A DNA stretch of 23,688 nucleotides from an uncultured Salinarchaeum sp. (GCA_964520165.1 CAZFMU010000007.1:1-23688), one strand, 5' to 3'. Shown: positions 4,084 to 20,958, numbered from the stretch's first letter. Program-made: numbers and translations. The notes: generated by a model from the sequence alone, not told the origin.

Positions 4084-4101
4084 CAGATAGTAACGGAAAA
4101 G

Positions 4102-4108: not shown

Positions 4109-4131
4109 CACGAACACAACAATTCAACACT

Positions 4132-6018: not shown

Positions 6019-6735
6019 TTACTGTTTGGCTTCGGTTGTCGCAAGCGCGACAGTAATGTTGTCGCTCCCGCCGTTGTTGTTTGCCTGAGCAATGAGATTA
6101 TCCGCCGCTGCGGACAGTGAGGTCGCATTCGTAACAGTGCGGTAGATCTGCTCATCGCTGACCTCCTCGGAGAGACCGTCAGAACACAGTAGGAGCGTTC
6201 CGGATACCGTATGCTCGTAAAAGTCCGGGTCAATATCTTCATTTGTACCGATCGCCTGCGAGACCACATTCCGCTGTGGATGTGTCTCTGCTTCGGCTTC
6301 GGTAATGTGGCCGGCTTCAACCAGCTGCTGGACAAGCGACTGGTCGGTGGTCACTTGGACAATGTTATCCCCGATATGATAGGCGCGACTATCGCCGACA
6401 TTGGCAATGATGGCCTCCTGCTCATTGATCACAGCCGCCACTAACGTGGTGCCCATCCCACGGTCGCCACCGGCATCTGGATGGCTGCGGACGGCAGTGT
6501 TGGCGGCAGTGATACCGGAAGCGAGGGCTACTTTCCAGTCACCGGTAGTGGTACGAAGCCTTTCCTTGAGCGTAGAGAGCGTCCGTTGACTCGCGACATC
6601 ACCAGCTGCGTGCCCACCCATCCCGTCTGCAACAGCGATTAGACCAACACCGTCAATTTTGACGGCGGTAACAGCGTCCTCGTTGTGTGAGCGCTGTCGT
6701 CCGGTGTCCGTTCGGGTTGCGAAGTGAACGGTCAT
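6019..6735 (-). CDS. PP2C-family (PPM) Ser/Thr protein phosphatase
   Basis: Canonical PPM motifs are present: TDTGRQRSHNED, AVADGMGGHAAGDVAS, DSRAY, LLCSDGL and GGSDNIT. ATG verified at 6733-6735. 238 aa. Confidence 0.9.
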   Translation of the reverse strand: MTVHFATRTDTGRQRSHNEDAVTAVKIDGVGLIAVADGMGGHAAGDVASQRTLSTLKERLRTTTGDWKVALASGITAANTAVRSHPDAGGDRGMGTTLVAAVINEQEAIIANVGDSRAYHIGDNIVQVTTDQSLVQQLVEAGHITEAEAETHPQRNVVSQAIGTNEDIDPDFYEHTVSGTLLLCSDGLSEEVSDEQIYRTVTNATSLSAAADNLIAQANNNGGSDNITVALATTEAKQ

Positions 6736-6826: not shown

Positions 6827-7528
6827 TTACTCTTGAGGAAGTGACGCACCACAATACGGACAGAAGGCTGCGTCAGAGCTAATTTCTTCGCCGCACTGTG
6901 GACAGAATTGCTGCGTTGACGACGACTGTGCATTCGCCGCTGCGGCGACTTCCTCCGGGCTCTGTGTCTCAACTCGCCCCGAGTCGGATCCATCGGCGAT
7001 ATCTGAGCGGTTGACAACACTATCTTCGACGGTCGTTGACCGATCGATACTATCGCCCATGACGACATCCCCGTCTCCCCGATGGACAACGTTGTTTTCG
7101 ACTCTAGCTTCCGAGACTGTTTCCAAATGAAATGAGGTCTGATACCCGATCGTGATCGTCGCATCATTCGATACCGTCTGAAGGTGACCTTGTGGAACGT
7201 CATGGGTCGTTCCCTGCGACTCAACGGTCACACCGTTGGAGTTCGCCTGGTTGCGAATTTCAATCGTCTGGTCCTGCGGTACCACGACGACCGGAGCGAG
7301 ACCCTCTTTCTTTCGCGATACCGTCACATCGCCAATACCGAGATCAATGATATCTGAAGGGGTTTCAGCGATAATGGTCGTTCCGTCGCCCGAGTCACGA
7401 TAGAGTTCGATACGTCCGTCTATCGGGAGTTTTCCGCCGTCCCCGGAGGCAACCGACAGATATCCTTTCATACGTATTGTGTGAGTTAATTGGAATTCGT
7501 CGTTCGGTTGAGGTTGTTGGGTAGCCAA
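6827..7528 (-). CDS. FHA-domain (phosphothreonine-binding) protein with a C-terminal Cys4 zinc ribbon
   Basis: The N-terminal region matches the FHA signature: G-R, then S-R (VTVSRKKEG), then N-G (ANSNGVTV). The C-terminus is CPQCG-x10-CPYCG. The track start at 7526-7528 is TTG. An in-frame ATG at 7469-7471 (MKGYLSV...) is the more likely true start. The architecture resembles Sulfolobus ArnA, which also combines a zinc finger with an FHA domain. Confidence 0.75.
   Translation of the reverse strand: MATQQPQPNDEFQLTHTIRMKGYLSVASGDGGKLPIDGRIELYRDSGDGTTIIAETPSDIIDLGIGDVTVSRKKEGLAPVVVVPQDQTIEIRNQANSNGVTVESQGTTHDVPQGHLQTVSNDATITIGYQTSFHLETVSEARVENNVVHRGDGDVVMGDSIDRSTTVEDSVVNRSDIADGSDSGRVETQSPEEVAAAANAQSSSTQQFCPQCGEEISSDAAFCPYCGASLPQE
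7002..7040. repeat. DNA-level copy of a shared C-terminal tail module (encodes ...TTVEDSVVNRSDI...), paralogous to 9019..9047 and more weakly to 8671..8724
   Basis: tctgagcggttgacaacactatcttcgac (7002-7030) matches tctgagcggttaatgacactatcacttac (9019-9047) at 23 of 29 nt. Both lie within different genes. Confidence 0.45.
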
Positions 7529-7613: not shown

Positions 7614-8378
7614 CTAGTTACGAAGGTACAGTCGCCGTACTCGCTCGGCCAGTTGACCGATCCGCTTGCTACGTTGTGGATCCAGCTGGTCAGATGCTAT
7701 CGCAGCAGCTTTGAGTTGCTGCTGTTGGGCCTCTAATTCTGACTGAACGTCCTCGTACGCGTCATCATCAACCGGAGTATCTTTGACAAATGAGTGGACC
7801 TCATCAAGTCGTTTACGACAGGCCTCCGCTGAATCTTCGCAGGCTCGCTCAAGATGTTCGGTTAGGGAGACGGCTAAGTAATCCGCAGAGGCATCCTGGA
7901 GCCGATCAACGGACTCGGTTGCGGCGAGATCGGCCAATCCGTCCTGCGCCATCTTGCGTTCTGTCTGTCGAGTCGCATCGTCAATGACGGTGTGGTAAGT
8001 TTCTTCAATCTCCTCGCGAAGCGTGTCAGAGTCTACTCTGGCTGCGTAGGTTTGCAAGCGATCTAAGGCCCGTTCTCGTTCGTCTGAGCGGTTGCCATCT
8101 TGTGCTACATCACAGTGCACGGAGATGGCTGTTGGGACCACCCCGGGAGCTGACTGGCCAACAAGCTTGTCAAGCTGCGATTGAGCAAGTGTGCGCTCCT
8201 CTTCGTAAGTCGCATCCCTAGCTACACGCGCAAGTGTTCGCCCGATCGCTGCACGCTGTTGATCATCAACCTCAGAGTAGAGGTCGCCAAGACGCTCAAG
8301 AGCCTCTTTGCGATCGGAGGAATACGTCGATTCACGAGCCTGACGCCGCAGTTCACTTACTGAGTCATGAAGAGCCAT
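7614..8378 (-). CDS. Hypothetical alpha-helical repeat protein (255 aa; HEAT/PBS-like repeats)
   Basis: The ORF track extends to 8603, but the first 75 residues are non-acidic and hydrophobic. The first ATG that yields a halophile-type protein (MALHDSVSELRRQ...) is at 8376-8378 and was verified. Helical motifs of the form ALERLGDLY / ALDRLQTYA repeat. Confidence 0.6.
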   Translation of the reverse strand: MALHDSVSELRRQARESTYSSDRKEALERLGDLYSEVDDQQRAAIGRTLARVARDATYEEERTLAQSQLDKLVGQSAPGVVPTAISVHCDVAQDGNRSDERERALDRLQTYAARVDSDTLREEIEETYHTVIDDATRQTERKMAQDGLADLAATESVDRLQDASADYLAVSLTEHLERACEDSAEACRKRLDEVHSFVKDTPVDDDAYEDVQSELEAQQQQLKAAAIASDQLDPQRSKRIGQLAERVRRLYLRN

Positions 8379-8439: not shown

Positions 8440-8997
8440 CTACGGTGGGGTCGATTCACCACAGTCCGGACATTGATCTGCCGCAGACGGGAGTTCTGCT
8501 CCACAGAATATGCAGTATTGGTTGTCCTCAGAGTCACGATCGGCAGGAGCATTAGATGTTGAACTCCCGCTATAGCTATTATCCGAGGACACAGTAATCT
8601 CATCCTTGTTGTCGGTGACCGTCATATTAGAAGCAACGCTATCGGTAATGGTGGTTTCCTCGGCTTGAGTATTAATATTCGATTTATTGACGACGCTGTC
8701 CTCAATAACCGTGCTGTGATCGTTCACTGTAGTGTGTTCATCAGTTTTCGTAGTGCTGTTGTCTACTCGCGTGATGTCGGTCTGCTTAACCGTCTTGTCC
8801 TGCTGACCGCTAACGATATCTCCGCTGACGTGAGTTACATCATCTGTAGTCGAGTCGAGAATATTGGCGGCAAGTTTATCCACCGTGTCATTATTACTGT
8901 TGGTCTCAACGGGGGCTGATGGGTCCCCCTCAGAACATTTTGGACATTCAGCTCCTGTATATACCTCGTTGTGTTGTTCGCAGTACGGCATAGTCAC
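8440..8997 (-). CDS. Zinc-ribbon protein with a Thr/Ser/Asp-rich low-complexity core
   Basis: N-terminal C-x15-CPKC and C-terminal CIFCG-x10-CPDCG. The middle is extremely T/S/D/N-rich and carries the shared EDSVVNKSNI tail motif. The track start at 8995-8997 is GTG and overlaps the upstream stop as GTGA. An ATG two codons downstream (8989-8991) is an alternative start. Confidence 0.65.
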   Translation of the reverse strand: MTMPYCEQHNEVYTGAECPKCSEGDPSAPVETNSNNDTVDKLAANILDSTTDDVTHVSGDIVSGQQDKTVKQTDITRVDNSTTKTDEHTTVNDHSTVIEDSVVNKSNINTQAEETTITDSVASNMTVTDNKDEITVSSDNSYSGSSTSNAPADRDSEDNQYCIFCGAELPSAADQCPDCGESTPP

Positions 8998-10157
8998 TCG
9001 TTCGTATTGTCGTCAACGTCTGAGCGGTTAATGACACTATCACTTACTTCCGTGCTCTCGTCGTTTACCTCGGTGCTCTGATCAATTTCGGTTATGCTTT
9101 GATCAACCGCGGCAATTTCAGTCGTGTCGACGGTTTTGTCCTGAGACCCGACAACCACGTCACCGTCAATAGTAGTATCACCTCCAAGCTCATCGAGACT
9201 CGTGATACCGGCGTATCTGAACTCTCCAATCGACGGCGGATCCTTACGTGTCGATTCAATGGCATCCTCGAACATGTTCCGGATGGCAGCGTAGTGATCG
9301 TCAGGGAGCTCGTTGACTGTCCGCCAGGCCCGATCAGCCACTTTTCCATCGCCGGCATCGGTGATGTCAACTGAGTACAAGCCCTGCTCCCAGACCGCGT
9401 CAATATCGAAAACCCAGAGCCCCACGGCATCAATATTACTATTTGATTTGATATGTTCGAATAAGTGTGGGGTCAAGAGCCCGACGCAGTCAGCAATTCG
9501 AATAGAACCGGTCATCGATCGAATGGTAGGATTTACGACCGCTACGTTCGCGCCTAGTGTGATATCTCCCGCAGCACTGACTGAAAATGCAAATAGGTCC
9601 GACGCTTCGATGTCCCCCTCCGAGTACACATCGCCGAGAATAACTGTCCGTGCGTTCGTCCGAAATGCGTCGGTTGCGTGCACCGAGCCGTATACGACAG
9701 TTGGACGCTCGACTGTGATATGCGCTCCAATTAAGTCACCATAGATCGCGACTGGCTGAGCTTCCCAGTCGTCAAAGGTTGATGCAGGAGCCACAATATC
9801 TATTTGCCCCTTTGAAATCACAGAGCCAGCAATACGCGCCCCGAGAGTAGACGCTTCATTAGCCGCCGGGTGAGCCGCCCCGCCGTGCTCAATAGCGACA
9901 CGATCACGGCCGAATATGTCACCGCTGACCTGTACACCGTACTTACAGTCAACTTCGGCGGCATAGATACCGATTGCCTCAGGCGGATTATATACCGACC
10001 CCTTTTCGAGAGTCACTTGCCAGTTGAGTTGGCGAAACGCGTTTTCCCGTGGAACGAGTGCCTCCTCGCACGTTTGATCAGCCTTGACAGTTGCAAAATT
10101 CGTGTTGTCTGTTTCGACTTTGTCCGACGTGATTGCTCCCTGAAGTTTGTCAGGCAC
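8994..10157 (-). CDS. Bactofilin-like beta-helix (polymer-forming cytoskeletal) domain protein with a Thr/Asp-rich tail
   Basis: The central ~170 aa consist of tandem short hydrophobic/Gly repeats of the bactofilin (DUF583) type: VQVSGDIFGRDRVAIEHG, ARIAGSVISKGQIDIV, VAIYGDLIGAHITVE, TVILGDVYSEGDIEASD and FSVSAAGDITLGANVAVV. The GTG start at 10155-10157 overlaps the upstream stop by 8 nt, and there is no in-frame ATG for about 210 codons. The C-terminus carries the shared DSVINRSDV motif. Confidence 0.6.
   Translation of the reverse strand: MPDKLQGAITSDKVETDNTNFATVKADQTCEEALVPRENAFRQLNWQVTLEKGSVYNPPEAIGIYAAEVDCKYGVQVSGDIFGRDRVAIEHGGAAHPAANEASTLGARIAGSVISKGQIDIVAPASTFDDWEAQPVAIYGDLIGAHITVERPTVVYGSVHATDAFRTNARTVILGDVYSEGDIEASDLFAFSVSAAGDITLGANVAVVNPTIRSMTGSIRIADCVGLLTPHLFEHIKSNSNIDAVGLWVFDIDAVWEQGLYSVDITDAGDGKVADRAWRTVNELPDDHYAAIRNMFEDAIESTRKDPPSIGEFRYAGITSLDELGGDTTIDGDVVVGSQDKTVDTTEIAAVDQSITEIDQSTEVNDESTEVSDSVINRSDVDDNTNE
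9019..9047. repeat. Second DNA-level copy of the shared tail module (encodes ...SDSVINRSDV...)
   Basis: See 7002..7040. Confidence 0.45.
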
Positions 10158-11148
10158 GTGCGGTCACCTCCGCGGTGTCCTCGGTTGTTGTAGCGTCTGT
10201 TGTCCTCTGTTTGTGATTGCCTTCTGCCTCAATCTCGTACGTTCGTAGTGCCTCAACAAATCGATCCAACGCGATATCTTCCTCTATAAGAAACTGGGGA
10301 TCGACATATGCACTGTCATCGCGGCTAGCAAGCGCATCACGCACCTCATCCTGTGCAACATACGACCGTACTGCATCAGCCATTTTGCTGTAGCCGTGTA
10401 CGGGATGCTCTCGGAGGTAGTCTCGGTATGGTTGGGAACGAGTTGGGGATTCGACATCATCAGAACGCCCTAAAATGGAATAAACGCGGAGTTCTTCGCC
10501 GTCATCTGTCTCAATGCCAACGACCCAAAAGGGAACTGTTATCTGCGCGGTATCACTCATTGTTGGGAGATCCGTCTGGAGTGACGCAATCGTATCTGCG
10601 GTCGCGGAGCGGTCATCAAGGAACTGATCAATCTGTTCGAAGTAGTTATTCCGCGCAGAGAGAATAGCATCAATACGATCACGATAGGTCTCATTTGTCG
10701 TGTTAGCAAGATTTGACGACTGACTGGCGACTGTTGAACGAGCCTCACGGATGTGATCAAACTCATCGTTAACTGTCTTGAAGGTATCACCGTGGCCGCC
10801 GATCGAATTCAAAAACCGATTTTTTAGACGCTTGATACTCCCGCGGTAGTCATCAAGCACCTCTTTGACGCGGTCTTCGTACTCCTGTCGCTTGCGTTCA
10901 ACCTCTTCTCTAAGTTGATCTTTGAGATCTTCGATTGCCTGACGTTCGGCCGTTGCTTTCTTGTGCTCAACATCACGAATTTGATGTTTGAGTTGTTTGA
11001 CCTCGTCGCTAAGCTGATCAACAGCACTGTTTGTCTCTCGGATTTCGCGTTTGAGATCATCAATCTGATCCGCAACAGCATCGCCTGCGGCCCGTCCGAT
11101 GCGGTGTTCGTCTACGTTTACTGTGACGTCCTGCTTGTCAGACATCAT
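10150..11148 (-). CDS. Hypothetical coiled-coil protein (332 aa)
   Basis: ATG verified at 11146-11148 (MMSDKQ). It overlaps the upstream gene's stop as ATGA. The N-terminal ~100 aa is heptad-like and E/R/K/Q-rich. The C-terminal half is mixed alpha/beta. Confidence 0.7.
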   Translation of the reverse strand: MMSDKQDVTVNVDEHRIGRAAGDAVADQIDDLKREIRETNSAVDQLSDEVKQLKHQIRDVEHKKATAERQAIEDLKDQLREEVERKRQEYEDRVKEVLDDYRGSIKRLKNRFLNSIGGHGDTFKTVNDEFDHIREARSTVASQSSNLANTTNETYRDRIDAILSARNNYFEQIDQFLDDRSATADTIASLQTDLPTMSDTAQITVPFWVVGIETDDGEELRVYSILGRSDDVESPTRSQPYRDYLREHPVHGYSKMADAVRSYVAQDEVRDALASRDDSAYVDPQFLIEEDIALDRFVEALRTYEIEAEGNHKQRTTDATTTEDTAEVTARA

Positions 11149-12692
11149 AGATCACCCAGCTGCTGCTCAATCTTGCGAGCCGTATCATAATCTGACTTGA
11201 TTTCGAAGTAGCGTTGCTCAGCGTCATCTTTGATTTGCTCGTATTGCGTGAGATCGATCATCTTCTGTTCTTTTGTCTGCCGAATCTCCTCGGCCTCCTG
11301 CTCAAGATCTTCAACGCTGTCCATGATCGGATCACGGAATGCATAGTAGAGGCTCCGCCATACCTCGCCGAAAAGTGCGCCACTATCAGCAACCGCAACG
11401 GGATCAACTGATCCGTGGACATCGCAGTAGCCTTGCTGGCCAAGGTCGTCAAGTCGGTTGTACGCACGCCTAAGTTCATCGTCAAGTTCAGGGATAGCTG
11501 CGGCAATGTCATCACGGATCTGGCCGGTGAAGTCCGACTCAGCACCACGATTGAGATCGGAGTCGCTGAGGGCCATGCCGAGACTCCCACTTTCAGCGCT
11601 TAGGATCTCGTCGACAAGATTGAGCTCGTCACGGATCGTCTCGATCCGATCTTCAAGACACTGTGGACAGACCTGCTTTTTCCCTGCAGTAGTGATCTGG
11701 TTGGCGTGATCGTCGTAGTGCGCCTCAACACGCTGTTGATTCGTCCGAAGGCGGGTCACTAGCTCCGTCGTAATCTCTTCCACACGGTCGCGACTCGCCT
11801 GCGCCTGCTCAAGCATATCGCCGCTCACCGCCTGTTCCTCAACGCCACGAATATCATCTACGGTCTCCTCACACTCGTTAAGCTGCTGACGAACCGATAC
11901 CTCTGGAATATCACGAGAAGGAGCCAAGAGCGAGTTACGCGATAGTTGTCTTATACTTTGTGCCACTTGGTTGTTTGCATGAACTGCTGCAGTAATCGTA
12001 TCACGTTCAATATTGCCTGCAACAGCGGCCATCGAATCAATCTGGTTGATGATCGGCTGCTCAAGACGGCGGTGGTCAGTAGCGTCCGGCGCGAACTGGG
12101 TAGCAACCGACGGATCAATGATAGATTCCTTACCGAAGGCCTCGTCATACTGTTGTTTGTAGGCAACAACTTCTTGTTGATTATCAAACAACAGTTCAGA
12201 GTCAATATATGCAAGTTCAAGATTTGTTTTAGGGGCAGTGTTCAGCCCATCGAAGATCATGTGCTGATCCTGGTAAGGGATCAAATAGAGAGGAACCCCT
12301 ATTTGTGAAACGAACGAAACGGTTCCATCTGGCTCGTTCGTCTCAAGCTTCGATCGCTGGGTGAGGATTAGCTCTTTCGCATCTTGATACTTACTAAATG
12401 CGTAGATACCGACACCAAGCGCAGCGACGAGACCTATACTGGCAAGGATCAATGCTTCCCCGGCCAAACCAATAATGATAAGCAGTATACCACCGGCCAC
12501 CCCACCGCCGCCGAGTTGTTGCATGCGCCGCTGTCGGGATTCAGCCTCAGTAATTGTATCCTCATACCGTTTCTGTCGGTCGAAGTAGCTGCCTGCAGCG
12601 TCGGCAAACGCCATGGCAAGTACTTCTGTTCGAGCGCGTTCATGCGGTATCCGTTCCCCAGCGTCTACCATTCCCGGAGCTTGATATGACAT
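11145..12692 (-). CDS. Membrane protein with an N-terminal 2-TM hairpin and a long helical cytoplasmic region (515 aa)
   Basis: The ORF track extends to 12779, but the first ATG giving a halophile-type N-terminus (MSYQAPGMVDAG...) is at 12690-12692 and was verified. Hydrophobic segments: GVAGGILLIIIGLAGEALILASIGLVAALGVGIYAF. It heads a run of four tightly coupled genes with overlapping start/stop codons (12692 to 8440). Confidence 0.7.
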   Translation of the reverse strand: MSYQAPGMVDAGERIPHERARTEVLAMAFADAAGSYFDRQKRYEDTITEAESRQRRMQQLGGGGVAGGILLIIIGLAGEALILASIGLVAALGVGIYAFSKYQDAKELILTQRSKLETNEPDGTVSFVSQIGVPLYLIPYQDQHMIFDGLNTAPKTNLELAYIDSELLFDNQQEVVAYKQQYDEAFGKESIIDPSVATQFAPDATDHRRLEQPIINQIDSMAAVAGNIERDTITAAVHANNQVAQSIRQLSRNSLLAPSRDIPEVSVRQQLNECEETVDDIRGVEEQAVSGDMLEQAQASRDRVEEITTELVTRLRTNQQRVEAHYDDHANQITTAGKKQVCPQCLEDRIETIRDELNLVDEILSAESGSLGMALSDSDLNRGAESDFTGQIRDDIAAAIPELDDELRRAYNRLDDLGQQGYCDVHGSVDPVAVADSGALFGEVWRSLYYAFRDPIMDSVEDLEQEAEEIRQTKEQKMIDLTQYEQIKDDAEQRYFEIKSDYDTARKIEQQLGDL

Positions 12693-12787
12693 TACACAGG
12701 GGAGTAATATCATACAACTCAAATAAATGCTTGGGCGCTGCTGCACCCGCCGCAAGTGCTTTATCACTAACAAAACCATTTCTCATC

Positions 12788-12943
12788 ATGCACGTTCAGG
12801 TGCTTGAATTCGAGTACAACGCTACAGACGCCAAATCAATTGAGACGCGCCTGAATAACTATTTCTCACACCACGAAGTCACAAACGTTGAGGTTGTTGA
12901 TACTGGTGGTCGAATCCTTGTCTTTTGTTTCTCCGCGGAGTGA
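12788..12943 (+). CDS. Possible small acidic protein (51 aa; MHVQVLEFEYNATDAKSIETRLNNYFSHHEVTNVEVVDTGGRILVFCFSAE)
   Basis: ATG at 12788. Halophile-like composition. It occupies a 312-nt gap between two minus-strand genes. There is no homology evidence, so it could equally be non-coding promoter space. Confidence 0.25.
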   Translation: MHVQVLEFEYNATDAKSIETRLNNYFSHHEVTNVEVVDTGGRILVFCFSAE

Positions 12944-13004
12944 ATGCGTTGTGATGCTAAGTGACACGACACGTCTAATTTTCTACCAATATCATGTACG
13001 GCAC

Positions 13005-14837
13005 TTACTCAAGCTGAGTGCCACACTCAATGCAGTACGTCGTACCAGGATCGTTTTGACTCCCACAGTCCGGACAGGTAATCGCTTCTTCGGCCGAGGA
13101 GCCTCTCTCAGAAGATTCGGCTTCACTCTCCGATGGTCCACCGCTCTGCACAATAGTCGTATCGCCACCAGAGGACGCTCCCGAATCGCCACTAACGATG
13201 ACATTATCGGAGGTATCCTCAGCAGCGGCAGCTGCCGCCTCACCCATGTTGTCCATCGCGGATTCGGTAGTCTCCTGCATCCGGTCCATTGAGTCGTCCA
13301 TCATCTCGTTCATCTCTTCGCGGAACTGCTTTTGATCCTTGACGCGCTGGCGTTCCTTTTCGGCACTATTAGCCTCCTGTCGCGCCTTCGCGAGTTCGTC
13401 GCTGTTCTGTGCCCCTAGCGAGTCGAGTTGATCCGCATTGAGGTGTTCGGCCTTGTCCATCTTCGCAAGTTCTGTCAGCGCGTCGGTATCCGTGTCGTCG
13501 AGACTCGCGAGCGTTTGTGCGTCCACGTTGTCGCGGGCACTAAGTCGCTTCTTTTCGACAGCGATATCATGCGACTCCTTTTCCATCTCAAGTTCTTGAT
13601 TGCGAGCCTTCTTGTCGAGTTTTTGCTCGTCTTTTTTCTGCTTGATGTCGAGCAGATCCTCTATTTCGGACACGTCCTGCTGGTGCTCGTCGGACCGCTC
13701 CTTCATCGACTGCTCGTGTTTGATATCGCGTCGATTGACGGCCGACTCCGTCCGATGGGTCTTCAGCTGTTCGTCGTGTTCGACGGTTTCCTGCTCGGCG
13801 TTGTGTGCGTGTCGCCGCTGCTGGTCCTCAAGATCCTGTTCGTGATCAAGTGCCTGGGACTTGATTTCGTGGTCGGCCGCCTGTTCGACCGTCTCGCGAC
13901 GCACCCGCTGTTCGTGTGTGTGTACCGTATCGTCGGTCTCGCGTTCGCGCTCGCGACGGTCAAGTGCCGCCGTCTGGTCAGCCAGTTCTTCTCTCTCCTC
14001 CCGGATATCGAGTTCCTTGTTGCGTTCGCGGAGTTCATCGCGGTCGTCCGCGTAGTCGAACGACAACAGTTCAATGAGTGACAGGCCATTTCGCTGGAAT
14101 GCGTCCTGGCACACTGTCTCGAGTTCGTCGCGAATTCGCTGTCGGACAGCCTGGTTACCATAGAGTTCATCGTGGGAATACTCGTGCAGCGCCGACTCAA
14201 CAGCATTGCGCATGGCCCGTCCGAGATCTTGGTTGAGGGCTCCGGTCGTCAGGGCGTCGCGATCTGCCATCATCGACTCGAAGAACCGTTCGAAGTCGTC
14301 GATCGACACGACGACTTCGAGTGTTGCCGATACAGGATAATCGTTTTGCGTACGAATATCCTCGAAAGTTCGCCGAACCGTCTTCTGTCCTTCGTCAACA
14401 AGGATAATGGTGAGATCGGGGGATCGGCGGAGTTCAACGATACGCTGGGGAAGGCTATCAAGTGTGTGCTGGCCAGGGCCGAGCGTTTCGGTGAGTTCGC
14501 CGTTCTCAAGCAGTAAGGCCCGGGTGCCCTGCTGGATCCGGATACTCTCGGTCCGCGTGAGTTTGCCGAGGAGGCTACCGGCACCGAGTACCTGCTCGTC
14601 AACACGTTTCGCAAACTCATCATCAGCCAGTCGCCAGCCGCCGCTTGTAGGAGCCTTCCCACTACTTTCATGTTCGGCACCTGCGGCAAGTTCCTGGCCA
14701 CAGTTACGACAGAACTGCGCCTCTACGGGGTTTGACTCGCCACAACTCGGGCAAGTGCGTACAAGCGGCTCTCCACATTCCTTGCAGAACTCGGCCTGTG
14801 CTGATACATCGGCGTTGCAGTTTGGACAGTGAGGCAT
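13005..14837 (-). CDS. Flotillin-like protein: N-terminal double zinc ribbon, SPFH/band-7-like domain, long E/R/Q-rich coiled coil, and C-terminal zinc ribbon
   Basis: ATG verified at 14835-14837. The N-terminus has CPNC..CKEC..CPSC..CRNC and the C-terminus CPDCG..CIECG. Residues ~95-250 follow the band-7 pattern: SIRIQQGTRALLLENGELTETLGPGQHTL, then LTIILVDEGQKTV, then TFEDIRTQNDYPVSATLEVVVSIDDFERFF, then a helical segment. About 250 aa of charged coiled coil follow, resembling the flotillin EA-repeat domain. Confidence 0.8.
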   Translation of the reverse strand: MPHCPNCNADVSAQAEFCKECGEPLVRTCPSCGESNPVEAQFCRNCGQELAAGAEHESSGKAPTSGGWRLADDEFAKRVDEQVLGAGSLLGKLTRTESIRIQQGTRALLLENGELTETLGPGQHTLDSLPQRIVELRRSPDLTIILVDEGQKTVRRTFEDIRTQNDYPVSATLEVVVSIDDFERFFESMMADRDALTTGALNQDLGRAMRNAVESALHEYSHDELYGNQAVRQRIRDELETVCQDAFQRNGLSLIELLSFDYADDRDELRERNKELDIREEREELADQTAALDRRERERETDDTVHTHEQRVRRETVEQAADHEIKSQALDHEQDLEDQQRRHAHNAEQETVEHDEQLKTHRTESAVNRRDIKHEQSMKERSDEHQQDVSEIEDLLDIKQKKDEQKLDKKARNQELEMEKESHDIAVEKKRLSARDNVDAQTLASLDDTDTDALTELAKMDKAEHLNADQLDSLGAQNSDELAKARQEANSAEKERQRVKDQKQFREEMNEMMDDSMDRMQETTESAMDNMGEAAAAAAEDTSDNVIVSGDSGASSGGDTTIVQSGGPSESEAESSERGSSAEEAITCPDCGSQNDPGTTYCIECGTQLE

Positions 14838-15145: not shown

Positions 15146-17353
15146 GTGACCAGGTGGTCGCGTCGGGCAATACTCGGCGGCATTATCGGTGGGACCGGCG
15201 GAGCGATGGGGCTGACCGAACGAGCCCGGGCCCAGTCCGGCCGTCGCAAGTGGCCCTCATTTGCGTGTGACACGCAGAACACGGGGGCAACCCCTGCACG
15301 GCCGCCAGAAACCTCGCCAGCAATAGAGTGGACAGCTGAGGTGAACGGTGCCGTGCTGTCGACAGCGGCGATAGCCGACGAACGGGTGATTGTTGGCGAC
15401 GAAACAGGTGTCCTTCACGCCCTTAACGCGTTGTCGGGAGAGCGGCTGTGGACGTTTGACACCGCAGATCGCATTAGGTCGACACCCACGGTTCGAAACG
15501 GAACAGTTGTCGTTGGGAGCGATGACGGAACGCTCTATGGACTCTCGACGACCGGCGAGCACTACTGGGAGTTCGAAACAGAGGGTCCGATTGTTGCGTC
15601 ACCGGCCCTCGTAGACGGCACTGTTTATGCCGGCAGCTACGATGGAACAGTATATGCTATTGACGTGACCAACGGTGATCCAGTGTGGATGACGGAGACG
15701 GGGGGGCTGATTGCATCGTCCGCAGCGGTGGCCGACGATACAGTGTATCTCGGCAGTAGCGACCAGCAGATGTATGCGCTCGACGCAGCGACGGGAGAGT
15801 CCGTGTGGCAAACCGAGGTGGAGGCTGAGATCGCCGCGTCGCCAGCAGTCAGCGGCGGAACCGTATTTATCAATACCGGGAGCGGGGAAACATATGCATT
15901 CGATGCTCGTTCCGGAAACCAACGGTGGTCCTTCGAGATGGACGGGATGGCCGGCACCTCGCCCGCAGTAATGGACGGGACAGTGTACCTGAGTGAAGGG
16001 CTAACCGGCACACGGGTTCATGCGGTGAGCGTGACGACAGGAACGCATAGGTGGACGGTTAATACCGAAGCGGCGGTTCAGGGCTCGCCGGCGGTCGGAG
16101 GCAAAACTATGTACATTGGTACCGGTGATGGACAGCTGTATGCCATTGGCACGTCCAATGGACAGGTGCGATGGACGATCAATCTTGATGGCCCCATTCA
16201 AGCCGGTCCAGCACTCGTTAATGGTGGGGTCATCGTTGGGACGACGGATGCAACCGTGTACGCCCTGGGAAACGAACAGTTCATGAGTGTCCCGGGCGGC
16301 CCGGGGCTCCCGGGAGGCGTCGGTGCACTGATAACCGCGGGACTCGGTGTCGGCGGCGGGACTTGGTGGTGGTGGCGTCAACGGGGTCGCTCATCTTCCA
16401 CCGACACTTCCAAGCAGTCCCAATCCGATTCTGCGGGGTCGTCAACCACAAGCGGTTCTGAGGCGGCTGCCGATATTACGCCGACCGAGATTCCCGACGA
16501 AATGACAGATCACCCGAAGATTCCTGAGACCGTGCCAGCACCAGCGAAGCGCTCGCTTGAGTATCGCTCGTTCCAGACGAAGACGCAGATCGGGAGTGGT
16601 GGCAATGCTGATGTCTATCGTACGACAACAGCTGACGGAGCCGAACTTGCAGTCAAAGAACCACATGTTACGGGAACGATCCACACAGAGACCGTCGAAC
16701 AGCTCCTCGAAGAGGCCGAGACGTGGGGTCAACTTGATGACCACGACCACATCGTGAAGATAGTCGACTACGGTAGCGATCCAGTACCCTGGATCGCCAT
16801 GGAGTATATGGACGGAGGGACGCTTACGCAACGAGCAGGCAATATGGGCGACCGGCAGGCACTCTGGACAGCAATCGCCGTCACAAAAGCGGTACGACAC
16901 GCCCACCGTCGTGGGGTTGCGCATCTTGATCTCAAGCCAGCGAACATCCTCTTTCGATCAGTCAAGGACAGATGGGACGTTCCCAAGGTCGCCGACTGGG
17001 GCCTTTCGAAGCACCTCTTAGAGCACTCACATAGCATCGAGGGACTCTCGCCACAGTACGCCGCCCCAGAGCAGTTTGATCAGGATCGAGGAGTCGCCGA
17101 TAACGTGACCGATATCTACCAGTTGGGAGCCGTTCTGTACGAACTATTCACTGGGCGACCACCGTTCGAGGGGCGACCGACCGAGATCATGCAGTCAGTA
17201 CTTGCCACCGAACCGCAACCACCGAGTTCTCTCGTAGAAGGGGATCTTCCACCGGCACTCGATGATATCCTTATGAAGGCCCTGGCGACCAGTAAAGGAG
17301 ATCGGTACGACGATATTGTCTACCTCAGAGACGATCTGCGGGATCTGTATTAG
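15146..17353 (+). CDS. Receptor-like Hanks-type Ser/Thr protein kinase: Tat signal, 8-blade PQQ-like beta-propeller ectodomain, single TM, cytoplasmic kinase domain (catalytically intact)
   Basis: GTG start. The N-terminus MTRWSRRAILGG is a twin-arginine motif. Eight repeats of the form V(Y/V)xGSxDGxxYAxDxxxGxxxW are present. A TM helix (GALITAGLGVGGGTWWWW) is followed by an S/T-rich juxtamembrane linker. Kinase motifs: Gly loop GSGGNADVY, the conserved Lys in ELAVKEP, helix-C Glu (EEAETW), catalytic loop HLDLKPANIL, DWG in place of DFG, and APE (YAAPEQ). Confidence 0.9.
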   Translation: MTRWSRRAILGGIIGGTGGAMGLTERARAQSGRRKWPSFACDTQNTGATPARPPETSPAIEWTAEVNGAVLSTAAIADERVIVGDETGVLHALNALSGERLWTFDTADRIRSTPTVRNGTVVVGSDDGTLYGLSTTGEHYWEFETEGPIVASPALVDGTVYAGSYDGTVYAIDVTNGDPVWMTETGGLIASSAAVADDTVYLGSSDQQMYALDAATGESVWQTEVEAEIAASPAVSGGTVFINTGSGETYAFDARSGNQRWSFEMDGMAGTSPAVMDGTVYLSEGLTGTRVHAVSVTTGTHRWTVNTEAAVQGSPAVGGKTMYIGTGDGQLYAIGTSNGQVRWTINLDGPIQAGPALVNGGVIVGTTDATVYALGNEQFMSVPGGPGLPGGVGALITAGLGVGGGTWWWWRQRGRSSSTDTSKQSQSDSAGSSTTSGSEAAADITPTEIPDEMTDHPKIPETVPAPAKRSLEYRSFQTKTQIGSGGNADVYRTTTADGAELAVKEPHVTGTIHTETVEQLLEEAETWGQLDDHDHIVKIVDYGSDPVPWIAMEYMDGGTLTQRAGNMGDRQALWTAIAVTKAVRHAHRRGVAHLDLKPANILFRSVKDRWDVPKVADWGLSKHLLEHSHSIEGLSPQYAAPEQFDQDRGVADNVTDIYQLGAVLYELFTGRPPFEGRPTEIMQSVLATEPQPPSSLVEGDLPPALDDILMKALATSKGDRYDDIVYLRDDLRDLY

Positions 17354-17418
17354 CCATGAGCGGGATGGTGCTGTACTCGGATCGCCCGCTGAACTATCGG
17401 CCGCGGTGGTGGAGATAA

Positions 17419-19614
17419 ATGCAGCTTGATCGCAGTCGTTCACTATCGCGACGAGGGGTCCTCAAAACAGCAGGGGTAGGGGTCACCGCTGCTGCTGTTT
17501 CCACATCGAGTACAGCGGAGTCGCAGTCGTCCTGGTCAACATTCGGTTACGATCCTCAAAATACTGGATATTCCAAGGAGGCAACCGAAGTACACAACCC
17601 CAAGGTGGCGTGGCGATTCGAAACACAACAGAGTGTCAATTCGTCACCGGCCGTGTACGAGGACACGGTTTATACTGGTAGTGGTGATGGACGGGTCTAC
17701 GCAATCGATGCTACGACCGGAGCGAAACGGTGGGACTATCGAACAGCCGGCGGCGTCAGTTCGTCACCGACCATCACCGCTGATACCGTTTATGTCGGGA
17801 GTTCAGACGCCACGGTCTATGCACTCAGTCGGACAGACGGGAGTGAACGCTGGCGGTATCGTACTGGAGCCGGAGTCTTCTCATCACCGACAGTAGTGGA
17901 CGATACCTTGGTTGTTGGGAGTCTTGATGGCGCCGTGTACGCGCTTGATACGGCAAACGGTGAAGTCCGTTGGACCCACGAGACCAACGGTGAGGTGTGG
18001 GCAACACCCGCCGTCGCCGACGGGGTTGTATTCGTCGGCAGCCGGGACCGACAACTATACGCCCTCGCGGTTGACTCGGGGACCAAACAGTGGGACCGAA
18101 CGACCGGGGGTCCGATCGATTCACCGCCGGCGATACGCGGTGATACCGTCTATGTCGGAAGCCTCGATGGCAGCGTATACGCCTTCACTCTTGATGGTCG
18201 GCAACGGTGGACGGCCGAAACAGACGGCAAGTTCGCGTCATCCCCAGCGGTAACAACCGACTCAGTGTACATCGGAAATCGCAACGGCAAGGTGTACGCA
18301 TTCACTGCGGGCGATGGCACCCGGCGGTGGACAGTCGAAACCGGCGGGCGGGTTTTCTCGTCCCCAGCAGTCACCACGGGACGTGTCTATGTGGGAAGCG
18401 GCGATGGAAGGATCTACGCGATTAACGCGACCACCGGGCGCACCAGATGGGATGTCGCAACCGGGGACGGGATCTTTTCCTCTCCGGCCATCGCCGATGC
18501 AACACTGTACATCGGGAGCACCGACGGAAACCTCTACGCAATTGCCGATGCAGCGACTCCATCATCACTCCCTGGCCCTCTCACGCAGCAGGAGTTAGCG
18601 CTCGCGCTCTTGGGTGGAGCCAGCATTGGCGTAGGAGGACTCTGGTGGTTCCGGCGCCGCAGAGGGGGGACCTCCGATGGCCCGGACGCTTCCTCGCCAT
18701 CGAACGGAACGCCACGAGCGACCGCCGCGAATCTGCCGGATCTAGACCCAGCGCCGGCTATCGAGGCAGCGACCTACAATCGGTTCACCGACCGCGAACG
18801 AACGGGGACGCAGGCCGGTATGCACGTCTACCGGGCGACGATCCGAGCGGATGGAGAGTACCGGACCGCGATTCTCCGAGAACCAGCGGTAACCGATACG
18901 CTTGAACTCCGGTCTGTCGGCGCGTTCAGCGAGCGTGTCGAGACGTGGGCGAAACTCGATGATCACAACCACATCGTCTCGGTATACGGTTACGGGCAAG
19001 ATCCCATCCCCTGGGTCGCCCATGAAGCCGTCGACGGGCCGTCACTCAACGCCGTCGTCGGGACAGTTGGCATCCCGCAGGCCGTGTGGATTGCCCTCGG
19101 CGTGACAAAGGCCGTCCGTCACGCACACCAGCGAGGAGTCTACCACGGAGCCTTGCAGCCGGCAGTATGTCAGCTTCGACAAACAGAAGACGCGTGGCCT
19201 GTTCCAAAGATTGCTGGGTGGGAACGCGATCAAAATCCATTCGACAACCGAGCAATCGCCGACCGTCCAATACTGCCGTATGCCGCCCCAGAGCAGCTCC
19301 GGGGGAGCAGATCACCCGACGACGTGACCGATGTGTACCAGCTCGGAGCCGTCTTATACGAACTCTTTACCGGACAACCACCTTTTGAAGGATCCTCACA
19401 AGAAATTAAAGAGGCAATCAAACATGAGTCTCCGACATCGCCGGACGAGGTTGCCGAGTCGGTGCCACCGGCGATCGCGGACCCCCTCCAGACCTGTCTC
19501 GCAAAACGACCAGCCGATCGGTATGACTCAACCGTGTACCTCCGCGATACCCTCAGTGATCTGCTCAAAAACTATCTCGATGTAGGAGACAATACTGTCG
19601 TGCTGGAAAACTAA
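17419..19614 (+). CDS. Receptor-like pseudokinase: Tat signal, 8-blade PQQ-like beta-propeller, single TM, degenerate kinase-like domain
   Basis: ATG verified at 17419. Tat motif SRRGVLK. Same architecture as 15146..17353. The kinase domain has lost the Gly loop (GTQAGMHVY), the conserved Lys (AILREP), the catalytic Asp/Lys/Asn (HGALQPAVCQL in place of HLDLKPANILF) and the Mg-binding Asp (AGWE in place of ADWG). The overall fold markers are kept: DDHNHIV, DPIPWVA, APEQ and DVYQLGAVLYELFTGQPPFEG. Confidence 0.9.
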   Translation: MQLDRSRSLSRRGVLKTAGVGVTAAAVSTSSTAESQSSWSTFGYDPQNTGYSKEATEVHNPKVAWRFETQQSVNSSPAVYEDTVYTGSGDGRVYAIDATTGAKRWDYRTAGGVSSSPTITADTVYVGSSDATVYALSRTDGSERWRYRTGAGVFSSPTVVDDTLVVGSLDGAVYALDTANGEVRWTHETNGEVWATPAVADGVVFVGSRDRQLYALAVDSGTKQWDRTTGGPIDSPPAIRGDTVYVGSLDGSVYAFTLDGRQRWTAETDGKFASSPAVTTDSVYIGNRNGKVYAFTAGDGTRRWTVETGGRVFSSPAVTTGRVYVGSGDGRIYAINATTGRTRWDVATGDGIFSSPAIADATLYIGSTDGNLYAIADAATPSSLPGPLTQQELALALLGGASIGVGGLWWFRRRRGGTSDGPDASSPSNGTPRATAANLPDLDPAPAIEAATYNRFTDRERTGTQAGMHVYRATIRADGEYRTAILREPAVTDTLELRSVGAFSERVETWAKLDDHNHIVSVYGYGQDPIPWVAHEAVDGPSLNAVVGTVGIPQAVWIALGVTKAVRHAHQRGVYHGALQPAVCQLRQTEDAWPVPKIAGWERDQNPFDNRAIADRPILPYAAPEQLRGSRSPDDVTDVYQLGAVLYELFTGQPPFEGSSQEIKEAIKHESPTSPDEVAESVPPAIADPLQTCLAKRPADRYDSTVYLRDTLSDLLKNYLDVGDNTVVLEN

Positions 19615-19644
19615 TTTATAGATCGGTTGAACAGTAGACGTTGT

Positions 19645-20229
19645 ATGGGGACCGGTCAATCATGGGGAGCAGACGGTGCGATATTCGCCGTTGCGACGAT
19701 TATTCTTGTTGGGACATCGGTACTCGCGATGCCCGCACTCGCACAGCAGGATGCAGCGGATGTTGCTGGCGATCTCTCATGTGTCGACGAGAGCCACACG
19801 GAAATGGCAGATCGAATCAGTTCACTCGCAGATCGTGGGACCGAGGAGTTGCCGGCCTCGCTCCAGAGTCGAATCGCTGGCGAGCGCATTGAGATCACGA
19901 TCGGAGACTCGACAAAGTTCACCGCACGCGTTGATCCCAGAGCGAACGTTCAAGAGGTGAGTACTGGCAGTCCAACCAACCCAACACTACTGATTTCGAC
20001 CGATTGTGAAACCATCGACCGAATCGCCCAATCGGCGACACCACAACGCGAACTTGAGGGAAGTGTCAGTAACGGTGCAATCGACATCCACAGCCCGAGT
20101 CCACAGCGCGATGCTGCGGTCTCGTATGGAAGTAAAGCCGTCCAGACGTACCACATCGCAAGCGAGGGAGACACTGGGACGGCCGGTGACGCTGCCGATG
20201 GGTTCAGAAATGGTCTCGTGATGTACTAA
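19645..20229 (+). CDS. Secreted or membrane-anchored hypothetical protein (signal-peptide-like N-terminus; about 195 aa)
   Basis: The track start at 19627 is TTG. The first ATG at 19645 gives MGTGQSWGADGAIFAVATIILVGTSVLAMPALAQQ, which has a hydrophobic core and an AxA-like site. Acidic mature part with 2 Cys. It is GC-rich like the flanking kinase genes, and the next gene starts 2 nt after its stop. Confidence 0.6.
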   Translation: MGTGQSWGADGAIFAVATIILVGTSVLAMPALAQQDAADVAGDLSCVDESHTEMADRISSLADRGTEELPASLQSRIAGERIEITIGDSTKFTARVDPRANVQEVSTGSPTNPTLLISTDCETIDRIAQSATPQRELEGSVSNGAIDIHSPSPQRDAAVSYGSKAVQTYHIASEGDTGTAGDAADGFRNGLVMY

Positions 20230-20230
20230 T

Positions 20231-20803
20231 ATGAGCGCACCGACTACAATGCAGTCCGTTGCAGACCAGTGGGGTATCACCCGGTATCACCTCGGCTTCG
20301 CCGGAGCACTCGGAATCGGTGCAGGGATTCTTCCCCCTGAGGGGGCCGTGACGATTCTCGGTTGGGCCGGCGGGTTCCTCGGCGCGATAACGGGGGCATT
20401 CCTGCTGACCGGGATCGGCGTTGTTGCACTCCGGTCAGCCGACGAGTGGCATCCCCGAGAGCATCTGACCAAAGAGGCGCCGGATACCGGCTTTAAACAA
20501 GCCGTATTCCTAACTATGAGCGGACAGCTATTTGTGCTCGGCACGGCCCTAACAGCCGGGGTACTAATGCGTACAATCGTGGTTCTTGTGGCCCCGTTCA
20601 ATCTGCTCATCTCCGGAGCGGTATTCCGCGATTACGGGCGCCTTGAGGACAATGAGGTTCGGTTCGATCGGTCACGGCCGCAGTATGCGGTATTGGCCCT
20701 CCTGCTTGGAACCGCTGGGGGGCTTTATTACTGGTACCGCCGTGGACGGGCCCGCGGTAATCTTCCGACGGAAGACGACGAGATTGACGAAGAAGCCTCC
20801 TGA
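20231..20803 (+). CDS. Integral membrane protein (about 4 TM, 190 aa), hypothetical
   Basis: ATG verified at 20231. Hydrophobic segments lie at about residues 19-40, 42-66, 91-113 and 115-135 and again after residue 150. The C-terminal tail is acidic. Confidence 0.7.
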   Translation: MSAPTTMQSVADQWGITRYHLGFAGALGIGAGILPPEGAVTILGWAGGFLGAITGAFLLTGIGVVALRSADEWHPREHLTKEAPDTGFKQAVFLTMSGQLFVLGTALTAGVLMRTIVVLVAPFNLLISGAVFRDYGRLEDNEVRFDRSRPQYAVLALLLGTAGGLYYWYRRGRARGNLPTEDDEIDEEAS

Positions 20804-20816
20804 CGGCCGGCGGTTG

Positions 20817-20825
20817 GATTTTTAT
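20817..20825 (+). terminator. Oligo-T tract (ggatttttatc) 16 nt after the stop at 20803, preceded by GC-rich cggccggcgg; archaeal-type terminator candidate for the kinase operon
   Basis: Archaeal termination commonly occurs at runs of five or more T. This is the only such run near the end of the 15146..20803 co-directional gene block. Confidence 0.3.
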
Positions 20826-20926
20826 CGTTATATAATCATACATTCGCGTCTGGAGTGAACAGCTACAAATTCCGACACACGTCGGTGAGAAGCCGCACAA
20901 TGACGCTATACTCTCAGCGAACGTAA

Positions 20927-20934
20927 TTTTATAA
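20927..20934 (+). promoter_or_regulatory. TATA box (ttttataa) centred about 28 nt upstream of the ATG at 20959, suggesting a leaderless transcript
   Basis: The position fits an archaeal BRE/TATA at -26 to -30. AT-rich spacer. Confidence 0.4.
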
Positions 20935-20958
20935 CGTCACGATCCGTGATATTCAGAT

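Follow-up and report, generated by a model that had tools for sequence, protein, structure and literature searches.

A Zinc-Ribbon-Flanked SPFH Protein without a Transmembrane Segment in Haloarchaeal ESCRT-III/Vps4 Loci

SPFH scaffolds and ESCRT-III polymers each represent a universal system for organising membranes. To our knowledge, experiments on a functional coupling between the two come only from YdjI and PspA of Bacillus, and genome context for such a coupling comes only from a few methanogens. Here, a protein of 610 amino acids (aa) is described that is encoded at 13005..14837 on the minus strand of a 23,688-nucleotide stretch of DNA from an uncultured Salinarchaeum sp. (GCA_964520165.1, CAZFMU010000007.1:1-23688; this whole stretch is referred to as the window). 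Both its sequence and its fold place this protein in the SPFH superfamily. A comparison of nine haloarchaeal loci, comprising eight distinct fetched loci and the window, in which the window proteins were compared by tblastn, reveals that in all nine the SPFH gene lies within approximately 10 kb of genes for a Vps4-like AAA ATPase, an ESCRT-III/Snf7-family protein, an arCOG09748-like protein and a HEAT-like protein.

In B. subtilis, the SPFH protein YdjI (SamI) is a product of the pspA-ydjGHI operon; it has no transmembrane (TM) segment, carries a zinc finger at its C-terminus, is brought to the membrane by YdjG and YdjH, and is required for the membrane foci of PspA, which belongs to the ESCRT-III superfamily (PMC8581546). 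YdjG carries two zinc ribbons, and YdjI itself is a Band_7_1 (PF13421, COG4260-type) SPFH protein with a C-terminal zinc ribbon. The initial annotation of the window supposed that the haloarchaeal protein would need a partner for membrane association, and the recruitment of YdjI provides an experimental precedent for this part of the claim. Both YdjI and the window protein are TM-less SPFH proteins with a C-terminal zinc ribbon, encoded beside an ESCRT-III-superfamily gene and membrane-protein genes. However, YdjI has neither a long coiled coil nor N-terminal ribbons, both of which are present in the window protein, and its partner is PspA, whereas the candidate partner in the window is an archaeal Snf7-type ESCRT-III protein accompanied by a Vps4 ATPase and kinases. 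In light of the shared traits, the window protein may work like YdjI without being a member of the same family. Proteins joining a double zinc ribbon to a YdjI-type Band_7_1 domain also exist; in hhalign comparisons of the window family with seven proteins that contain DZR and PF13421, only the zinc ribbons align, and a search with the distant N-terminal profile returned zinc-ribbon matches only, including DZR and Band_7_1 proteins.

The ESCRT loci of the Meth_adaptin type encode an SPFH–coiled-coil–Zn-ribbon protein (for example, WP_013898576.1 of Methanosalsum zhilinae), for which a lid- or cage-like role resembling that of HflK/C has been proposed, with the YdjI–PspA link being cited (Makarova et al. 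2024, PMC10936438). This protein and the window protein share the combination of SPFH domain, coiled coil and zinc ribbon within a euryarchaeal Vps4/ESCRT-III locus. As compared by description, the SPFH domain of the Meth_adaptin protein starts from residue 1 (Table S3 of that study) and is not preceded by a double ribbon, whereas the window protein has one. The accompanying genes also differ, with adaptin-appendage, GOLD and ProX genes in the Meth_adaptin locus, in contrast to arCOG13166, arCOG09748, kinase and PP2C genes in the window. In the same study, the Halo_FHA locus is defined by Vps4 (arCOG01307), ESCRT-III (arCOG07402) and arCOG13166, with arCOG09748/08177, a Ser/Thr kinase (STK) and a Ser/Thr phosphatase (STP) as optional components; its text, figures aside, does not mention an SPFH protein for the Halo_FHA loci (PMC10936438). 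Of the described proteins, the window protein most resembles the Meth_adaptin SPFH–coiled-coil–Zn-ribbon component, and it would work most like YdjI.

In the flotillin cage, SPFH1/2 is followed by a helical wall of 186 residues that is charged and non-heptad, then by a cap helix, a strand of a parallel beta-barrel and a C-terminal domain (PMC11260169). This order is mirrored by the SPFH domain, long charged non-heptad helix, further helix, strand-like motif and C-terminal domain of the window protein, and the SPFH cage formers share its fold (Foldseek E values from 3e-9 to 1e-3). Unlike flotillin, the window protein has no TM helix, hairpin or acylation site, and it carries zinc ribbons at both ends. 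The description of the protein as flotillin-like in the initial annotation is thus appropriate for the order of its parts (SPFH, charged helix, C-terminal module) but does not extend to family membership, as no flotillin-specific family is among its Pfam matches at E≤1 and the hairpin is missing. The major vault protein is, like the window protein, predicted to be soluble; however, the vault repeat domains are missing from the window protein.

Architecture, fold and family of the SPFH protein

The gene at 13005..14837 has an ATG start, and its product begins with MPHCPNC; all the features described in this paragraph lie on the minus strand. The N-terminal double zinc ribbon (aa 1-50, 14688..14837) contains four CxxC pairs (Cys 4/7, 18/21, 29/32 and 43/46) and matches the Pfam family DZR (PF12773) over aa 4-47 with an E value of 1.9e-16 and 60 bits, compared with a cut-off of 27. 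A linker (aa 66-97, 14547..14642) with a conserved W-R-x(3-6)-F-A-x-R motif connects the ribbons to the SPFH/Band_7 core (aa 98-263, 14049..14546), where PF01145 (Band_7) matches aa 100-280 with an E value of 4.4e-9 and 37.1 bits, above the gathering score of 23.6. In a 27-sequence alignment of the haloarchaeal family, the linker residues A76 and R78 are invariant, and the W and R of the linker are invariant in an alignment of distant family members. The core is followed by a long, highly charged helical region of approximately 275 residues (aa 267-541, 13215..14039) that is conserved along its length in the family, with fractions of 0.28 for D+E, 0.16 for K+R and 0.09 for Q over aa 281-540. 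A nearly invariant tail motif, “AAEDTSDNVIVS…GDTTIVQ(S/G)G” (aa 538-566, 13140..13226), comes next, in which A538-N545, V546 and G558-T561 are the conserved columns of the 27-sequence alignment. The protein ends with a C-terminal zinc ribbon (aa 586-610, 13008..13082) of the form CxxC-x10-CxxC (Cys 588/591 and 602/605), for which Zn_ribbon matches are found in Pfam at aa 582-606. Each of the 12 ribbon cysteines reaches a conservation of at least 90% in the 27-sequence alignment, and the protein has one further, single cysteine, C243.

Neither a TM segment nor a hydrophobic hairpin was found in a Kyte-Doolittle scan of the protein, in which 19-residue windows average at most 0.68, whereas the threshold is 1.6. 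A membrane anchor of its own, which is typical but not universal in the SPFH superfamily, is thus not found in the 610-aa protein. Two further sequence searches were uninformative: a scan of NCBIfam returned zinc-ribbon fragments only, and a sequence search of the PDB returned noise only.

A single-chain AlphaFold2 model was obtained from the 27-sequence alignment, with a mean predicted local distance difference test (pLDDT) score of 69 and a predicted template modelling (pTM) score of 0.35, which indicates that the inter-domain geometry of the model is unreliable. The alpha/beta core at aa 98-263 is predicted at pLDDT 75-88, and the zinc ribbons are compact, at approximately 77 for the N-terminal and 87 for the C-terminal set. 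The charged region is modelled as helices at aa 267-352, 370-436 and 480-541, followed by a disordered tail at aa 540-582, in which the conserved tail motif has a pLDDT below 50 in the monomer. A Foldseek search of the PDB with this model gave 48 matches at E≤1e-3, and all 48 are SPFH proteins, including HflK/C (7vhq, 2.9e-9), prohibitin, flotillin, stomatin, erlin, QmcA and the major vault protein. The identities of these matches are 12-18%, isolated SPFH domains align with a root-mean-square deviation of 2.8-4 Å, and no SPFH subfamily is favoured among them. Membership in the SPFH superfamily is therefore established by both a profile score above threshold and the SPFH alpha/beta fold. The protein does not, however, belong to either the flotillin or the YdjI family; PF13421 (Band_7_1), like the flotillin-specific family, is absent from its Pfam matches at E≤1.

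The picture of an SPFH core with a long coiled-coil-like helix, zinc ribbons at both ends and no TM segment, as first given in the initial annotation, is upheld by these results. Both of the checks that were suggested there on Pfam families and on the predicted fold came out in its favour, and neither an unsupported fold nor a predicted TM segment or hairpin, either of which was named there as grounds for refutation, was found.

A homologue search identified at least 46 full-length clusters with 38-60% identity to the protein, from Haloplanus, Salarchaeum, Halosimplex, Halapricum and metagenome-assembled genomes (MAGs) of Haloarculaceae, together with one protein from Nanohalobium. Many of these family members carry a precomputed PF01145 assignment. 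A HMMER scan over 1.84 billion representatives extended the family to 223 clusters at E<1e-30 and 1284 clusters at E<1e-10, with clusters taken at 50% identity. The best 148 matches were examined, excluding two that were already known, and 126 of the 148 are full length. At least three N-terminal and at least two C-terminal CxxC pairs are present in 84 of these 126 representatives, while the N-terminal set alone is found in 28 and the C-terminal set alone in 12; a W-x-R…FAxR motif lies between the ribbons and the SPFH core in 96. A hydrophobic segment is missing from 125 of the 126, and 125 have a non-halophilic composition. The occurrence of both ribbon sets in 84 of 126 representatives indicates that the ribbon-flanked SPFH domain is a defining feature of a large uncharacterised family that extends beyond the haloarchaea. 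The initial annotation had considered zinc ribbons flanking an SPFH domain to be unusual, a view that these counts contradict, and the combination of SPFH domain and zinc ribbon had also already been described for YdjI and for the methanogen ESCRT clade. Homologues were not found in plasmid and phage collections beyond generic zinc ribbons.

In a MAG of Candidatus Nanohalobium (locus L005, 10001..11449), a 482-aa homologue with 37% identity is encoded without either zinc-ribbon set, for which transfer between a host and its DPANN symbiont followed by loss of the docking modules may be one explanation. A copy with 45% identity, followed by a HEAT-like gene, is found on a 2.4-kb contig (L012) binned as “uncultured Salinivenus sp.”, a bacterial MAG related to Salinibacter, which reflects a misbinned contig or else gene transfer among members of hypersaline communities.

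The haloarchaeal ESCRT locus and its distant relatives

The order and strand of the modules vary among the nine haloarchaeal loci through rearrangements and inversions. The HEAT-like gene adjoins the SPFH gene in seven loci, downstream in L002 (11766..12536), L004, L009, L010, L011 and L012 and upstream in L003, and SPFH–HEAT may be the tightest conserved pair. Ser/Thr kinases and an arCOG13166-like protein occur in subsets of the nine loci, and PP2C occurs in the window only. The co-occurrence of an SPFH domain, coiled coil and zinc ribbon within a Vps4/ESCRT-III neighbourhood, as described for the methanogens, is thus found in all nine, a context that the initial annotation overlooked.

Accession look-ups in the tables of Makarova et al. 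2024 indicate that the window is an expanded Halo_FHA ESCRT locus. The window genes are 40-69% identical to proteins that cluster with the published accessions, and the kinases and PP2C are recognised by Pfam. In Halapricum, the genes for Vps4 (WP_229124354) and arCOG13166 (WP_229124358) lie on either side of the SPFH gene (WP_229124356). The former, an AAA protein, is in the published Vps4 tree set, and the latter is described as “FHA fused to CdvA-like”; arCOG09748 is assigned to WP_229124351 of Halapricum and to ESS09465 of A07HN63; and ESS09464, assigned to arCOG07402 (ESCRT-III/Snf7), is flanked by Vps4 (ESS09463), arCOG09748 (ESS09465) and arCOG13166 (ESS09462) (PMC10936438). WP_229124354.1 shares a 90%-identity cluster with the AAA protein of L002, the Halapricum locus of our comparison.

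The ESCRT-III/Snf7-family protein of the window (arCOG07402, 216 aa, 4132..4782, plus strand) is assigned as such from its 69% identity to ESS09464.1. In its AlphaFold model, a long helical hairpin is followed by short helices; the fold search with this protein is non-specific, with a best E value of 0.15 and true ESCRT-III structures at E values of 3-5. The gene is followed by that of the Vps4-like single-domain AAA ATPase (4786..5943, plus strand), which contains AAA and AAA_lid_3 and is 57% identical to the L002 AAA protein. The 659-aa arCOG09748-like ESCRT protein (1081..3060, minus strand) consists of helical, coiled-coil, globular and winged-helix parts. Adjacent to it, a 195-aa protein (3057..3644, minus strand) has 56-62% identity to neighbours of arCOG09748 homologues and occupies the position of arCOG08177, a Cas2-like and TBP-like ESCRT component; this putative label is drawn from synteny with those tables that have been published. 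A small, strongly hydrophobic protein of 92 aa is encoded directly upstream of the ESCRT-III gene (3805..4080, plus strand; source gene call), with 38-58% identity in tblastn to 92-94-aa genes in L001, L002 and L004, and this protein is a possible membrane receptor of the system. A minus-strand open reading frame (ORF) that overlaps it (3757..4404) is probably spurious.

Toward the SPFH gene, the minus strand encodes the PP2C Ser/Thr phosphatase (6019..6735; PF00481, E 8.5e-16), a 214-aa zinc-ribbon, arCOG13166-like protein (6827..7471) with 40% identity to an L002 protein that clusters at 90% identity with WP_229124358.1, and a 254-aa helical-repeat, HEAT-like protein (7614..8378), whose homologue WP_229124357 is a HEAT repeat protein according to UniRef. 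These are followed by a Ser/Thr-rich protein of approximately 183 aa with a C-terminal zinc ribbon (8440..8997; gene call and Pfam), a repetitive, beta-rich 387-aa protein with a “GGDTTIDGDVVVG…DSVINRS” tail and no Pfam match (8994..10157), and a 332-aa coiled-coil protein (10150..11148), which overlaps its neighbours in an operon with 8994..10157 and 11145..12692. No FHA, HEAT, Snf7 or bactofilin domain was found by Pfam in the arCOG13166-like, HEAT-like, ESCRT-III-like and 387-aa proteins, and the labels FHA, HEAT and arCOG08177 are taken from published tables, source names or synteny rather than from profile matches obtained here. Short Asp/Ser/Thr/Val motifs are common to four proteins of the cluster (6827..7471, 8440..8997, 8994..10157 and, in the SPFH tail, 13140..13226, all on the minus strand). 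The SPFH tail contains “DNVIVS…GGDTTIVQ”, and the 214-aa, approximately 183-aa and 387-aa proteins contain “GD(V/I)V.G.QDKTV … DSV(V/I)N(R/K)S(D/N)”; the “GGDTTI” of the tail also recurs in the 387-aa protein. These motifs may represent co-assembling strands or phospho-sites. The tail motif of the SPFH protein is a candidate beta strand that forms only in the oligomer, by analogy with the flotillin cage, or a candidate cluster of phospho-sites.

The gene at 11145..12692 (minus strand) encodes the 2-TM hairpin protein (515 aa) that the initial annotation named as a possible anchor, with a long helical cytoplasmic part that contains a CPxC…CxxH pair. Mechanical ORF calling extends this gene to 11145..12779 (544 aa), and a hydrophobic stretch of 43 aa at aa 88-130 of the longer ORF is consistent with a 2-TM hairpin; the start at 12692 is likely, given that homologues align from residue 30 only and that the source annotation has 515 aa. 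The protein is a plausible candidate anchor or partner on account of this stretch, but the trio of 2-TM, coiled-coil and 387-aa proteins is clear in only six of the nine loci, with a very divergent version in L002, and in other loci a different membrane protein is encoded directly upstream of the SPFH gene. Between the 2-TM and SPFH genes lies a 51-aa ORF (“MHVQVLEFEYNATDAKSIETRLNNYF…”, 12788..12943, plus strand; source gene call), which is convergent with the SPFH gene and divergent from the 2-TM gene. It has no Pfam match, and tblastn detects 51-aa genes with 35-49% identity at the same position in L001, L003 and L004 (Haloplanus, Salarchaeum and Halosimplex).

On the other side, four kinase or kinase-like genes lie upstream of the SPFH gene, two of which are fused to PQQ propellers. 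The kinase block (15146..23577) contains two paralogous Ser/Thr kinases with PQQ beta-propellers (15146..19614, plus strand; Pfam), which are divergent from the SPFH gene, a membrane Ser/Thr kinase of 505 aa (20959..22476, plus strand; Pfam and TM segments), two small TM proteins (19627..20229 and 20231..20803), and, on the other strand, a weak kinase-like ORF of 303 aa. The G+C content is approximately 0.49-0.55 in the left half of the window and then approximately 0.56-0.63 over roughly 13-22 kb.

The distant relatives of the SPFH protein are found in high-GC and low-GC metagenomic loci, which are inferred to be bacterial from neighbours such as ECF sigma, SLT/LysM and CsgG/LpoB genes. In the high-GC loci L017 (1481..13984), L021 and L022, and in part in L026, the genes form a one-direction array with an ECF sigma gene alongside, which suggests bacteria. 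First comes a kinase whose C-terminus is arCOG09748-like, followed by a helical protein of 216 aa, an AAA ATPase, a 197-aa protein (weak Snf7 match, E 0.025), a second AAA protein in which Vps4_C exceeds its gathering score, and a membrane protein. The DZR–SPFH–helix–ZnR protein is encoded next, and the array closes with genes for a ZnR–FGE-sulfatase protein and a DZR-kinase; L026 adds subtilase and FHA. Two Snf7-like small helical proteins thus alternate with two Vps4-like AAA ATPases in L017, L021 and L022, and these three loci may represent a bacterial ESCRT-III/Vps4-type operon that retains Snf7-like genes. When the ESCRT-III-like family of the window was compared by hhalign with the 216-aa and the 197-aa protein of these bacterial-looking loci, the signal was weak or absent (E 0.008 and 0.21, respectively).

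In the low-GC loci, namely L018 (3663..10694), L019, L027, L029, L030 (778..18955), L037 and L038, a 184-aa protein and a 397-aa arCOG09748-like protein are encoded directly upstream of the SPFH–ZnR gene, the latter with a C-terminal “CPTGW” motif like that of the arCOG09748 proteins. These loci also contain genes for kinases, STK–FGE-sulfatase fusions, FhaA-like FHA, CsgG/LpoB-like, caspase, SLT/LysM, DUF4384 and giant beta-propeller proteins. Across the family, the invariant theme is Ser/Thr phospho-signalling together with zinc-ribbon proteins; the haloarchaeal set and one of the bacterial sets also have ESCRT-III and Vps4. A relative that lacks the N-terminal ribbons, P0238, was considered as a protein of the Meth_adaptin type and rejected, as its locus contains TPR/HEAT genes and no Vps4. 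In L041, a HEAT-repeat protein (11890..14520) is encoded directly downstream of a very distant, ribbon-poor SPFH gene, in a locus without ESCRT genes.

Proposed mechanism and alternative explanations

We lean, by a modest degree, toward the interpretation that the SPFH protein forms a cytoplasmic, partner-anchored ring or cage; in haloarchaea, this assembly would organise a site on the membrane for ESCRT-III/Vps4 and would be gated by phosphorylation. Many copies would pack side by side through their SPFH domains and their charged helices of approximately 275 aa, by analogy with flotillin, HflK/C, prohibitin and stomatin, into a ring or a truncated-cone cage, with the charged helices corresponding to the wall and cap helices of flotillin, the “DNVIV…DTTIVQ” tail forming a closing beta layer, and the C-terminal zinc ribbon placed at the apex. 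Because no TM segment or hairpin is present, the rim of the cage would use the N-terminal double zinc ribbon, together with the W-R…FAxR segment, to dock on the membrane; the ribbons are a natural docking module in that they occupy the rim position at which other SPFH proteins carry a TM anchor. The docking target may be the 2-TM protein at 11145..12692 and/or small membrane proteins of the locus, with the 92-aa protein and, in other loci, the membrane protein encoded directly upstream of the SPFH gene as other candidates. The docked assembly would mark a membrane patch and recruit or confine the ESCRT-III-family protein together with the arCOG09748, arCOG13166 and HEAT partners, which Vps4 would then remodel. 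The kinases, PP2C and an FHA-type reader may gate the assembly by phosphorylation, possibly on the Ser/Thr-rich tail.

In this proposal, the domain architecture, the SPFH fold, the missing TM segment, the conservation within the family and the conserved linkage to the ESCRT locus are observed directly. The oligomeric cage, the binding of zinc, docking through the ribbons, the identity of the anchor, the recruitment of ESCRT-III and the phospho-regulation are, by comparison, inferred. Further support, as judged from gene content, comes from the distant and apparently bacterial relatives of the same architecture, whose genes directly follow those for Snf7-like, Vps4-like AAA and membrane proteins.

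Several results weigh against this interpretation. The SPFH gene of the window lies approximately 7 kb from the ESCRT-III/Vps4 pair on the opposite strand, and it appears to be monocistronic, with the convergent 51-aa ORF after it. The 2-TM anchor candidate is missing or unrecognisable in three of the nine loci, as no homologue was detected in L009 and L010 and the match in L002 has an E value of about 1e-4. The ESCRT-III fold of the 216-aa protein was not confirmed by the fold search. The SPFH gene is missing from ESCRT-III/Vps4 loci of the same clade in Halonotius terrestris and, according to Table S2 of Makarova et al. 2024, in Halomicrobium mukohataei; these minimal loci indicate that the SPFH protein is an accessory of the expanded subtype and not a core component. 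Outside the haloarchaeal set, no AAA ATPase was detected within 13-20 kb in the low-GC kinase/FHA/FGE-sulfatase/caspase loci, a ribbon-poor relative sits among TPR/HEAT genes, and the Nanohalobium homologue has no ribbons and lies outside any ESCRT-type locus. Additionally, the model contains helix breaks along with its low pTM score, and assembly of the SPFH protein into a cage is an analogy drawn from a single-chain prediction and from structural relatives.

The distribution of the neighbouring genes bears on an alternative that is considered rather unlikely, in which the locus is a Ser/Thr-kinase/FHA module for stress sensing or conflict of a defence-like kind, the SPFH protein serves as a signalling platform or as a scaffold for a membrane-perturbing effector, and ESCRT is an interchangeable output. 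Kinases, FHA, PP2C and zinc-ribbon proteins, and not Vps4, are common to the whole extended family; the AAA-free low-GC loci combine STK–FGE-sulfatase, FhaA-like FHA, caspase, DUF4384 and CsgG/LpoB-like genes; L026 contains its subtilase together with FHA; and the kinases of the window, which has four kinase or kinase-like genes in addition to PP2C, match PADLOC models such as PD-T4-6. However, these PADLOC matches are those of generic Pkinase domains, no PADLOC family matches the SPFH protein, and its non-kinase neighbours give only weak coiled-coil matches. The lack of plasmid or phage homologues also argues against such a module, and the haloarchaeal locus is syntenic over several genera and always contains ESCRT-III and Vps4. 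A mobile-element or defence-island origin was rejected, as nothing supports it. The kinase/FHA module and the ESCRT scaffold are not mutually exclusive. A stand-alone, flotillin-like microdomain scaffold with a coincidental neighbourhood is distinctly unlikely. The apparently monocistronic gene, the Nanohalobium homologue and one TM-less, ribbon-poor relative without ESCRT genes would fit this explanation, as would the general autonomy of SPFH proteins as scaffolds, but the same four to five ESCRT-locus genes are kept within 10 kb in all nine haloarchaeal loci despite changes in order and strand, distant relatives again adjoin Snf7-like/Vps4-like or arCOG09748-like genes, and flotillin-style membrane binding is impossible for this protein without a TM segment or hairpin. 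The best fold matches include the HflK/C, prohibitin and QmcA complexes, and an AAA protein is encoded in the locus, which together would suit a regulator of a membrane protease or channel, as in HflK/C–FtsH, prohibitin–m-AAA and stomatin–NfeD. Such a role is nevertheless highly improbable: a scan of 19 window proteins detected neither an FtsH-type protease domain nor NfeD or Lon, the AAA protein is without a peptidase domain and has a close homologue in the published Vps4 set, and the SPFH protein does not have the TM anchor that those complexes use. The protease-regulator role was rejected, as no protease partner is present.

A broader form of the partner-anchored cage, which we regard as unlikely, is that the family represents the coat or corral of an ancient, phosphorylation-gated ESCRT-III/Vps4 machine for budding or repair in haloarchaea and some bacteria. 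An anchor-free cage would use its zinc ribbons to dock on small receptors in the membrane and would close around cargo or a damaged patch, which would then pass to ESCRT-III; if true, such a coat would be a prokaryotic functional counterpart of ESCRT-0 or of flotillin-type sorting platforms. In a more exotic version, which draws on the predicted solubility of the protein, two half-cages could join via their N-terminal ribbons into a closed, vault-like particle.

A link between SPFH proteins and ESCRT had already been anticipated in the literature, and this locus extends the coupling to a second archaeal ESCRT clade, Halo_FHA. The novelty lies in how widely the ribbon-flanked, TM-less family extends (more than 200 clusters at 50% identity) and in the fact that it recurs beside genes of the Snf7/Vps4-like and kinase types in bacterial-looking loci. 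If the proposed mechanism is true, it would provide a testable model for the targeting of ESCRT-III to a membrane site, for the role of the zinc ribbons and for control by phosphorylation, and the finding bears on how early the partnership between SPFH proteins and ESCRT arose.

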